Source: Candidatus Bathyarchaeota archaeon
GTDB taxonomy: Archaea; Thermoproteota; Bathyarchaeia; TCS64
Reading direction: 5' to 3'
Length of the DNA stretch: 64,000 bases
Assembly (NCBI GenBank): GCA_963771885.1
Contig: CAVYVF010000023.1
Coordinates: forward strand, 384,001 to 448,000
Every line of letters starts with the position of its first letter. The stretch's first letter is position 1. A program made the position numbers and the translations under genes. Below, piece after piece: positions 7,985 to 15,091 of this stretch. The notes below the pieces were generated by a model that saw only the letters and a list, made by a program, of their open reading frames with translations, was not told the origin of the DNA and did not search any database.

Positions 7985-8093
7985 ATGATCCTTTGTAAAG
8001 GGATGTATATAGGGTTATCGAGGGTTATCTATTATCATTTATTGTGGTCTATGTGGGCTCAGTACTTTATAGGGGGACAGCGAGTATCCCCCA

Positions 8094-8552
8094 ATGGTCA
8101 GGAGCATCGTAATCGAGTTCCCATCCGTGCACTCTTCCGTGTGCGCCGACCTATGGGAGGAAGTGGAGCCAGAGCTCTGTGAGACCCTTTGGGGAAACCT
8201 CGCGGAGCCCATTAAGATGGTGTGCAGACACCCGGTTAGCAGCGGACAGGAGTTCAGTGCCGAAGCGCGCCCTCCGAGGCACCCCGTCAAGTCAGGCCTC
8301 GGCGTCGGGCGGAAGAGGTATCTTTACACGACGGTGCCTCTCGGCGGCGTCGTCTACGCCGTCACCGGCGGCTTCGGCGGCCTCAGCCTCTACTACGGGC
8401 CATGCACAGAACCCCTCCAGATCAGGGGAAGCGTCGTTGCACAGGTAATCCCCGAAGACCTCCCAAAGGCTGCGAAGGCGGGCAAGGCGGTCTGGGACGC
8501 TCAAGCGCTGGAGCACAAACCGATGACGATAGTCGTGAGGAGGGCACAGTAA
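8094..8552 (+). CDS. Cyclophilin-like (DUF3830-type) domain; N-terminal half of a McbB/cucumopine synthase-like protein
   Basis: ADLWEEVEPELCETLW, YYGPCTEPL, VIPEDL..AGKAVW motifs parallel the recalled McbB N-domain. Confidence 0.75.
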   Translation: MVRSIVIEFPSVHSSVCADLWEEVEPELCETLWGNLAEPIKMVCRHPVSSGQEFSAEARPPRHPVKSGLGVGRKRYLYTTVPLGGVVYAVTGGFGGLSLYYGPCTEPLQIRGSVVAQVIPEDLPKAAKAGKAVWDAQALEHKPMTIVVRRAQ

Positions 8553-9109
8553 TGAGGGACTGGCGAACGGTCAAGGACGAGATTGAGAAGGACCTAGACC
8601 GCATCTTCTGGGACGAGCCCGTCGAGGTGGAGATGTGCCGTCTCGGAGTCTTCCCGAGCGGGGCGGAGGTACACGGTCAAGTGCTTGGCAACCTCCTCTT
8701 CCTCGTAGGGGACACCTCAGCGATGGGGTGGAAATGCGCTCAGCCGACCATCAACGCGGCGCTGAGGGACCCGAGGTTCACGGTGGAGCAGGTAGAGGCG
8801 ATCTGGCTCGCGGCGACGATGCCGATAGCCAAGCTGGTCGGCGACGTCGACCCGCCGAGGTGCCCCGCGCCATGGCTCAACCTTCCCAAAGTCCTAAGGT
8901 TCGCCAAGGAGATCGAGGAGTCCTTCTCTAGCATCAAGACCAAAGAGGAGCTCGAGGACTTGCTCTGGAGTTGGTTCAACTACATCAACACACTGAACCG
9001 GTGGTTCACCGTGGCGTTCCCGTTCGAGATGGGAGCGCTCTTACCCCTGAGGAGCGGCGCGAATATTGAGCACCTCCGCGAGCTCAACGAGAAGGGTCTA
9101 CGCGATTAG
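8552..9109 (+). CDS. Cucumopine-synthase C-terminal helical-bundle protein
   Basis: TAATG overlap with GGAGG upstream; EIEKDLDRIFWDEP, GQVLGNLLFLVGD, NYINTLNRWFTVAFPF motifs. Confidence 0.75.
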   Translation: MRDWRTVKDEIEKDLDRIFWDEPVEVEMCRLGVFPSGAEVHGQVLGNLLFLVGDTSAMGWKCAQPTINAALRDPRFTVEQVEAIWLAATMPIAKLVGDVDPPRCPAPWLNLPKVLRFAKEIEESFSSIKTKEELEDLLWSWFNYINTLNRWFTVAFPFEMGALLPLRSGANIEHLRELNEKGLRD

Positions 9110-9149
9110 TTACATATTGCGGTTTTTTCCCGCCTGGTTCGGCGCAAGT

Positions 9150-14008: not shown

Positions 14009-14530
14009 TCAGCCCTCGCGTTTCCTGAGGATCATCTCGGCCGCGACCTCGGCGGCGATTCCGCAGACCTTGAGGCAACCCTCGTCGCCGTGGCCGCCCG
14101 AGTTGATGAAGTCGGTTCTTTGGGCGGCGTCGGCTAGGTTCCAACTCCTCCCATAGAGCGCTTGCTGTATGTCCCGGCAGAGCGTCGAGGGGAGTGGCTT
14201 CTCGAGCGCCCACTCCTTCTCGAGGCGGTGCATGAACTCGTTGCTCAGGGCGTAGCCGTCGGCGACCGTACCCTGTAGCTTTGGCAGGTCTTCGAGCTTC
14301 TCCCTTCCCTCCTCGAGGCCGAGGGCCATGAGTGCGCCGACGAGTGCTCCACAAGACTCGCCTCTCCTCGCCATGCCGCCGGCGAAGGCAGTCGCGGCTT
14401 TCAGGCTCTGGGCGTCTCCGATGTTCAAGCCTTCCTGTAAAGCGGCTATTACTGCCTGGCTGCAGCCGCTCATGTTCTCGTTGGCGTGTGCCTTGGCGCG
14501 TATAGCCTTGACCTTATTGTAATCAACCAT
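14009..14530 (-). CDS. C-GCAxxG-C-C family putative redox protein (paralogue 1)
   Basis: GCSQAV, GESCGALVG, TLCRDI, CLKVC. Confidence 0.88.
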   Translation of the reverse strand: MVDYNKVKAIRAKAHANENMSGCSQAVIAALQEGLNIGDAQSLKAATAFAGGMARRGESCGALVGALMALGLEEGREKLEDLPKLQGTVADGYALSNEFMHRLEKEWALEKPLPSTLCRDIQQALYGRSWNLADAAQRTDFINSGGHGDEGCLKVCGIAAEVAAEMILRKREG

Positions 14531-14572
14531 TAATGAGACGTGGTCCAGCCCCGATTTAAACCCTGAGCCGAG

Positions 14573-15091
14573 CTACATAACCCGTGGGAGGAGCCTCTCC
14601 GCAGCTACCTCGGCTGCGATCTTGCACACCTTGGGGCATCCCTCGTCGCCATGGCCCCCACAGGCGTAGAACGCCTCCCTCTGCGCCGTGTCGCGGAGGT
14701 CGTAGCTCCTCCCATAGATGCCCCTCTGGATGTCCCAGCAGATCGTAGACTTCAGCGGCTCCTTGAGGTTGAACTCCTTCTCGACTCGGCGCTGGAACTC
14801 GGTGGCCACCGTGTCGGCCTCGGCGCAGGCGGCGGCGTAGACCGTAGTGTCGGGCATTCTACTCCTACCCTCCACGAGCCCTACAGCCATCAACGCGCCT
14901 AACAACGCGCCGCAGGTCTCACCCCGCCTGGCGACTCCGCCGCTGAGAACCGTCGCTGCCTTGAACGAGTTTTGATCACCGATCATGAGCCCCTCCTGGA
15001 GCGCGAGGAGCACGGACTGACTGCAGCCGCTGTACTTGTCGTAGAAGAGGGCGCGCCTGCCGATCTCCTTCACGAGAACATCATCTACCAT
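14573..15091 (-). CDS. C-GCAxxG-C-C family putative redox protein (paralogue 2)
   Basis: GCSQSV, GETCGALLG, TICWDI, CPKVC. Confidence 0.88.
   Translation of the reverse strand: MVDDVLVKEIGRRALFYDKYSGCSQSVLLALQEGLMIGDQNSFKAATVLSGGVARRGETCGALLGALMAVGLVEGRSRMPDTTVYAAACAEADTVATEFQRRVEKEFNLKEPLKSTICWDIQRGIYGRSYDLRDTAQREAFYACGGHGDEGCPKVCKIAAEVAAERLLPRVM

Follow-up and report, generated by a model that had tools for sequence, protein, structure and literature searches.

The closest described systems are the bacterial Pictet-Spenglerases McbB, KslB and the cucumopine and mikimopine synthases (Cus, Mis), and the characterised members of this fold are one-chain synthases in the accessible portions of PMC12012969, PMC12547825 and PMC12536604. 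According to the available text of PMC12012969 (Kim et al.), the order of the two domains is swapped between KslB and McbB, E274 of KslB is essential, the V223-S225 backbone binds the Trp carboxylate and R256/K264 bind alpha-ketoglutarate; the KslB site is located between monomers (PMC12012969 and, likewise from an excerpt, PMC12547825). In McbB, E97 was confirmed as the catalytic site in the accessible part of PMC10372676, in which archaea are unmentioned. That Bathyarchaeota have members of the family is known from Kong et al. (PMC12536604), who list 12 of them among 471 PF18631 proteins; the available sections of that paper hold nothing on split genes.

A two-gene member of the McbB/cucumopine-synthase fold

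The window analysed, a stretch of 64,000 nt from a Candidatus Bathyarchaeota archaeon, carries on its forward strand two genes that occupy different reading frames in the ORF list. Gene 1 (8094..8552) encodes a cyclophilin-like beta-barrel subunit of 152 aa (McbB N-domain/DUF3830-like) and gene 2 (8552..9109) a helical-bundle subunit of 185 aa (Cucumopine_C, PF18631). As described in the first-pass annotation, stop and start overlap in the sequence TAATG (8550..8554), which may couple their translation, and gene 2 has its own RBS-like word, GGAGG (8539..8543), 8 nt upstream of the second ATG, the same letters encoding Arg149-Arg150 of gene 1. On the same strand, a TATA-box-like TTTATA (8066..8071), 23-28 nt upstream of the ATG of gene 1, would agree with leaderless transcription as known from archaea, and a six-T run just 3' of gene 2 (9123..9128) is a possible archaeal terminator. 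A scan for sigma-70 promoters, a bacterial model for which none is expected in an archaeon, gave no match. Contigs representing ca. 200-230 nt of gene 1 are present in two RNA runs, a weak signal from one study only. The 15 neighbours scanned include band 7/NfeD, RsmF, Gfo/Idh/MocA, DHDPS-like and GH116 genes; none is McbA- or McbC-like, as already reported in the first pass. Elsewhere in the window (14009-15091), two tandem genes of the C_GCAxxG_C_C redox family adjoin an AdoMet-decarboxylase-like gene.

Profile and structure comparisons establish the pair as a genuine two-gene member of the McbB/cucumopine-synthase fold, within an uncharacterised clade of archaea and bacteria. Gene 1 matched residues 21-160 of the deposited McbB chain (3X27) with an E-value of 1.6e-8 as a single sequence and of 3.1e-13 as a 41-row profile. 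Its AlphaFold model (pLDDT 85.6), superposed as the barrel alone, had its best structural match in 3X27 (Z 19.7, 1.9 A over 137 residues), with KslB at Z 19.4, the DUF3830-type protein 3KOP at Z 17.2 and true cyclophilins at ca. Z 12 or less. Gene 2 matched residues 183-331 of 3X27 (profile E 1.9e-14), and the McbB linker of ca. 20 residues between both matches is without counterpart in the gene pair. These results bear out the initial proposal that gene 1 is the McbB N-domain with its catalytic Glu, gene 2 the helical C-domain, and the break located at an inter-domain linker whose residues are absent. Of the two Pfam profiles named in that proposal, Cucumopine_C recognised gene 2 (49.2 bits for a cut-off of 27) whereas DUF3830 gave a weak score with gene 1 (16.6 bits), below its cut-off of 26. 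NCBIfam has no model for the product of either gene.

Alignment places E106 of gene 1 (codon at 8409..8411, forward strand as for all positions below) with the catalytic E97 of McbB and E274 of KslB, and this residue is kept in 68 of 69 rows. Residues V48-S49-S50 (8235..8243) align with the V223-V224-S225 backbone site of KslB, with S49 and S/T50 each conserved in 68/69 rows and G51 in all 69, and F50 of gene 2, equivalent to KslB F46, is found in 72/75. Six other KslB residues (R256, K264, Y230, W232, F89 and Y92) are not kept in the gene pair, the columns of R256 and K264 being occupied in the clade by Tyr/Val and Gly, respectively. Gene 2 further displays a clade-specific insert of 10 residues (8849..8878) that, by alignment, directly follows the F89/Y92/N93 active-site rim of KslB; it contains C104 (69/75 rows), W108 and N110 (71/75 each), and neither McbB nor KslB nor the plasmid proteins described below possess it. 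Since the Glu, the carboxylate-site residues and F50 are kept while the other KslB residues are lost and an insert is present, the pair is likely to bind an L-amino-acid derivative, though not in the manner of KslB. The plasmid gene taken here as mis (see below) also lacks the R256/K264 pair, so that the gene pair may still act on keto-acid adducts, including those of alpha-ketoglutarate. A two-cysteine, PLP-independent racemase was considered and rejected: C44 and C104 of gene 1 are invariant in 41 close homologues, but each occurs in only 43/69 rows.

Split and fused forms across archaea and bacteria

The same tandem two-gene layout was found at 14 of 14 loci of relatives (one truncated, one with an early stop in gene 2), and close homologues carry Bathyarchaeota names. 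A scan of GTDB genomes yielded 71 loci of the clade, 4 of which start at a contig end; wherever upstream DNA was available (67/67), a separate barrel gene directly precedes the bundle gene. At these loci the start of the bundle gene is located -13 to +14 nt from the stop of the barrel gene and is preceded by a Shine-Dalgarno-like word in 48/67. In addition, two contigs of one public metagenome span the junction with no indel there, the rows examined not including the stop-codon letters. A frameshift or an assembly error behind the split is ruled out by these relatives, GTDB loci and bridging contigs, as the first-pass annotation had argued.

Within the host's family, gene 2 occurs in 13/36 genomes, compared with 0/24 in more distant relatives. 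Overall, the 71 loci cover Bathyarchaeia and other archaea, Alphaproteobacteria (Devosia, Bauldia), Synergistota, Bacillota (Blautia, Oscillibacter, Pseudoflavonifractor), one Bifidobacteriaceae and one Acidobacteriota, and include the named isolates Blautia hominis KB1, B. celeris NSJ-34 and Pseudoflavonifractor AF19-9AC. Two loci, L027 and L047, are titled Patescibacteria and Desulfaltia yet have Bathyarchaeia-type copies and neighbours, and the match coordinates of L027 are identical to those of a genome of the host's family (G033); both probably reflect mislabelling or misbinning. Across the fold, split pairs are widespread, and they are not an archaeal oddity. The initial description of these enzymes as single-chain bacterial proteins, and hence of the archaeal pair as a surprise, was overstated, since split pairs of the clade occur in five bacterial phyla and a split pair of another subfamily is carried by the long-sequenced mikimopine plasmid pRi1724.

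Only one natural fusion was found within the clade, P0164 (387 aa). A profile search returned 222 representatives at E <= 0.001 and, among the 149 new ones listed, 67 had the length of a stand-alone bundle (155-200 aa) and ca. 8 had both domains, many others being fragments. Fused forms were searched by length at 101-324 and 367-2000 aa, the likeliest fusion size (325-366 aa) being covered by this profile search only, in which fusions of that size scored <100 bits. Four proteins (P0196, P0204, P0218 and P0250) consist of two tandem Cucumopine_C bundles with no barrel.

Trees of each domain were built from 68 rows: 15 were fused proteins, and the others came from the distant pairs and from 29 of the 71 close loci. 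Neither duplicate loci nor two proteins of the bundle-bundle type were included, and the close homologue P0283 stood in for McbB. The gene pair belongs to a 36-row clade (100/100 in the bundle tree, SH-aLRT 100 in the quick barrel tree) composed of 35 split pairs and of P0164, which is nested among clostridial pairs, while P0283 falls in a separate clade. Plasmid fusions of both domain orders cluster with split pairs from the gut (100/99); the presumed mis gene clusters with the split pair of pRi1724 (99/89). A constraint uniting the 15 fused rows, chosen after inspection of trees in which long branches are present, was rejected (p-AU 7.5e-6), which suggests that the fused forms are not one clade. 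The trees are unrooted; they are most simply read as several fusions starting from a split ancestor, though this is not proven, and independent fusions would account for the opposite domain orders of McbB and KslB. Other layouts were seen in two hut clusters: at L120:8070-9026 a split pair occurs in reverse order (bundle then barrel), and in a Devosia-family genome (L121:7948-10219, on a 3.3-Mb contig) a cus-like, bundle-first fusion and a barrel-first fusion lie back to back.

Genomic context in bacteria, on opine plasmids and in archaea

Among the 31 bacterial carriers (L027 and L047 being counted with archaeal-type loci), hutH, U, I, C or ftcD was found within 12 kb of the pair in eight, a distance chosen after the data had been seen. 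These belong to Pseudomonadota (4), Synergistota (1) and Bacillota (3) and correspond to L051, L053/L099, L057/L100, L062/L093, L061/L096, L068/L094, L080/L097 and L084/L098, the lyase of L084 scoring just under the HutH cut-off. In Devosia and Bauldia the pair adjoins nearly full hut sets, and one clostridial locus has the order barrel, bundle, antiporter, fchA, ftcD, followed by hutU, I and H. The other 23 pairs have no hut gene in the locus DNA examined and mostly occur with a regulator (AsnC, GntR, LysR) and a transporter (NhaC-type, ABC); often, a regulator and an amino-acid-type transporter are the only companions of the pair. No lactamase-like pair was detected among the annotated neighbours of bacterial clade members. 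An ergothioneine or thiohistidine pathway was discarded, the neighbouring lyases and hydratases scoring as HutH and HutU and falling under the thiourocanate-hydratase cut-offs.

At the genome level, urocanase is present in 27/31 bacterial carriers and was not seen in the remaining 4. It occurs in 9/9 carriers with Oscillospiraceae names versus 5/150 genomes sampled evenly from the family of G085, membership of all nine in that GTDB family being assumed from their NCBI names. Urocanase lies within 12 kb of the pair in 4/27 cases for 0.32 expected; p-values are not relied on here since kin are not independent. In a forward test, four PF18631 loci of other subfamilies, taken from even family samples (1/150 and 3/120), were all located within 8 kb of hut-like genes, the likeness being of the BLAST identity type (39-80%). 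In gut Oscillospiraceae (L089, L090 and L091; genomes G090 and G085), 2-4 distant split pairs are arrayed with genes for a branched-chain amino-acid ABC transporter and dihydroxyacetone kinase, one of these arrays adjoining a HutH-like gene, and DhaK is also found at L119; such neighbours would fit the release of a triose from an amino-acid adduct.

A tblastn search of 72,556 plasmids returned 18 records, in which genes at the right end of the T-DNA were taken as cus and mis, both being annotated as hypothetical in the records. Outside the T-DNA, two fused homologues lie amid hutH, C, F, I, G and D on each of the plasmids pRi2659, pAvCG412 and pAtAG67, two of which also have hutU annotated; on Sodalis pHS1, a split pair adjoins hutH. 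On pRi1724, a split pair outside the T-DNA (RS00110/RS00115) adjoins an amino-acid ABC transporter and a lactamase-like pair, a hut set being found 15-22 kb further. In the same region (L102:11635-14519), the neighbouring gene taken as mikimopine synthase is fused, barrel first, and a hydantoinase/oxoprolinase pair, most like caprolactamase, follows; its products could open the opine lactam.

The gene taken as cus is 99.6% identical over 837 nt to a homologue outside the T-DNA among hut genes, and the other twin is 98.0% identical over 856 nt. The genes concerned are located at L103:15986-16948 and L108:2301-3248 (pRi2659), at L104:11905-12939 and L109:1838-2785 (pAvCG412), and at L123:14989-15936 (pAtAG67). 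The A. vitis twin shares its protein accession with a gene of the T-DNA-less pAtAG67, which is presented as an octopine/cucumopine-catabolic plasmid without Vir and T-DNA in the available part of bioRxiv 2023.06.20.545721. The degree of identity suggests that cus is a copy of a catabolic gene and means that a catabolic operon encodes an almost identical enzyme; a near-copy of a synthase in such a place would most simply run the same reaction in reverse, pulled by HutH. Our literature search found no publication linking cucumopine or cucumopine synthase with catabolic histidine utilization, and none on DUF3830, although a catabolic use of the cus-like gene may already be in print. The plasmid proteins fall into other subfamilies, the identity between gene 2 and the pRi1724 protein being 24% and gene 1 having no significant pairwise match among them. 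The host window has neither the hut set, nor the ABC transporter, nor the oxoprolinase/lactamase-like pair of the cucumopine/mikimopine regions of Ri, Ti and At plasmids.

The archaeal carriers give no link to histidine, which counts against a catabolic reversal of the reaction. An aromatic (histidine-family) ammonia-lyase was detected in only 1/40 archaeal-type carriers and urocanase in none of 37 genomes of the host family, and the host genome (G000, 92% complete) has no detectable HutH, HutU or FtcD. HisG, HisB and HisD were not found there either and HisD occurs in 6/36 genomes of the family, so that much of this Bathyarchaeia family may need histidine from outside. Auxotrophy as the reason for carrying the pair was tried and dropped, hisD being present in 3/13 carriers versus 3/23 non-carriers (p 0.65, no enrichment). 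In the host genus, a Gfo/Idh/MocA oxidoreductase, a DHDPS-like aldolase and a GH116 glycosidase are conserved next to the pair, two of the three on the opposite strand, and would hint, if anywhere, at sugars. Genes for dimethylargininase, M42 peptidase and RidA occur near the pair in another archaeal genus, and no neighbour family is common to all archaeal loci. In one Nitrososphaerota locus (L058:973-2996), two distant barrel and two bundle genes lie ca. 3.5 kb upstream of the clade pair itself, adjoining an amino-acid ABC transporter and a xanthine-dehydrogenase-like set.

A proposed ring-opening role and comparison with known systems

Since the bacterial copies often sit among histidine-breakdown genes, the pair probably acts in the degradative direction, and we propose, with about as much doubt as belief, that it is a two-subunit retro-Pictet-Spenglerase that opens a cyclic histidine-carbonyl adduct, as would a cucumopine-type enzyme in reverse. 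By analogy with KslB and McbB, the barrel and bundle halves would assemble into one enzyme, a 2:2 complex equivalent to the McbB homodimer with its site between the barrel and the partner's bundle; the V48-S50 backbone would hold the alpha-carboxylate, and E106, as acid/base, would reopen the ring to an iminium that hydrolyses to histidine and a carbonyl compound. HutH would pull the reaction in bacteria; in the host archaeon, where no hisG, hisB, hisD or hut gene was found, the freed histidine would rather be salvaged. The carbonyl part may be a small aldehyde or keto acid, as in spontaneously formed adducts of the spinacine type, a guess prompted by a pocket without the alpha-ketoglutarate residues of KslB and with the Cys/Trp insert. 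Formaldehyde adducts are thermodynamically stable, which weighs against their enzymatic reopening. In the accessible part of PMC9814826, spinacine is described as forming spontaneously and as detected in all mouse tissues and plasma examined, with reversibility shown for the cysteine adduct only and not for spinacine. For fungi that act on manzamines, a retro-Pictet-Spengler step has been put forward (PMC7024544, available in part). Judged by title or abstract start, no publication on microbial breakdown of spinacine was found.

The hut context applies equally to a catabolic enzyme that would act on modified histidine by other chemistry, such as epimerisation of a ring carbon or hydrolysis of an open imine or of an N-substituted histidine, perhaps with C104 of gene 2 as nucleophile. 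The clade-specific Cys/Trp insert at the rim of the site would suit such an enzyme, as would the flavin dehydrogenase and SDRs added at alphaproteobacterial loci, the two SDRs of Blautia and a histidine-racemase-like gene, below its cut-off, at one clostridial locus. No cofactor enzyme recurs in all lineages, however, the Glu and the carboxylate site match those of Pictet-Spenglerases, and Ala replaces C104 in two loci, which leaves this option rather unlikely. A synthetic Pictet-Spenglerase, which would condense a reactive aldehyde with His or Trp either to obtain a product or to dispose of the aldehyde, appears less likely still. In its favour, the catalytic Glu is retained, such an enzyme would be reversible anyway and the characterised members all run forward in the portions of PMC12012969, PMC12547825 and PMC12536604 at hand. 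Against it, no tailoring genes lie alongside, the pair is usually accompanied by transporters, regulators of the amino-acid type and hut genes, and a host in which no His biosynthesis genes were found would be spending a scarce amino acid. Of the two roles put forward in the first-pass annotation, the catabolic one has the better support and the product-making Pictet-Spenglerase is the weaker.

It is very improbable that the Bathyarchaeia pair has shifted to another substrate, such as an adduct of Trp, Tyr or a sugar, so that the bacterial link to histidine would not be transferable. The single ammonia-lyase among 40 archaeal-type carriers, the sugar-type neighbours conserved in the host genus and a barrel loop that reads VTGGFGG in archaea and S-GW/GY otherwise would agree with such a shift; against it, gene 2 is 52% identical to the copy within a Devosia hut operon, in one 100/100 clade, and the neighbours vary between archaeal genera. 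Opening of a histidine adduct can also be set in a wider and more doubtful scheme, in which the clade would be dedicated to the repair and salvage of aldehyde-damaged (spinacine-type) histidine in sediment archaea and gut anaerobes, and the whole McbB fold would go back to catabolic, ring-opening enzymes encoded by two genes. Fusion of these genes, on several occasions and in both domain orders, would then have produced the synthases of opines and alkaloids. If the ring-opening role holds, the common form of the fold would be a two-subunit catabolic enzyme and the pair a defined retro-Pictet-Spenglerase, through which microbes of sediments and guts would consume histidine-carbonyl adducts; named genes could also be put forward as candidates for the step that opens the ring when cucumopine and mikimopine are catabolised.

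When compared to known systems, the pair resembles McbB of Marinactinospora thermotolerans (3X27) in its gene order, which is the McbB domain order, in the catalytic Glu and in the carboxylate site, whereas McbB is a single chain without the CPAPW insert that makes beta-carbolines from Trp in a biosynthetic cluster. KslB and AsKslB (9NS6, 9K0A, 9UWA) share the same two domains, with E274 corresponding to E106, V223-S225 to V48-S50 and F46 to F50, but KslB is a single chain of reversed domain order. The stand-alone DUF3830 protein 3KOP has the barrel fold in common with gene 1. The clade shares its fold, its presumed histidine chemistry and its hut context with the synthases of cucumopine and mikimopine and with uncharacterised homologues of these located outside the T-DNA (pRi2659 RS26170/RS26175, pRi1724 RS00110/RS00115, pAtAG67 RS26125/RS26130), and the pRi1724 pair is split in the very gene order found here; that group differs by having no insert, by its lactamase-like companions and by its substrate, a plant-made opine of His and alpha-ketoglutarate. 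Finally, the bacterial Pictet-Spenglerases McbB, KslB, Cus and Mis are single chains whereas two genes are found here, and the pair is not classed among the single-chain synthases.
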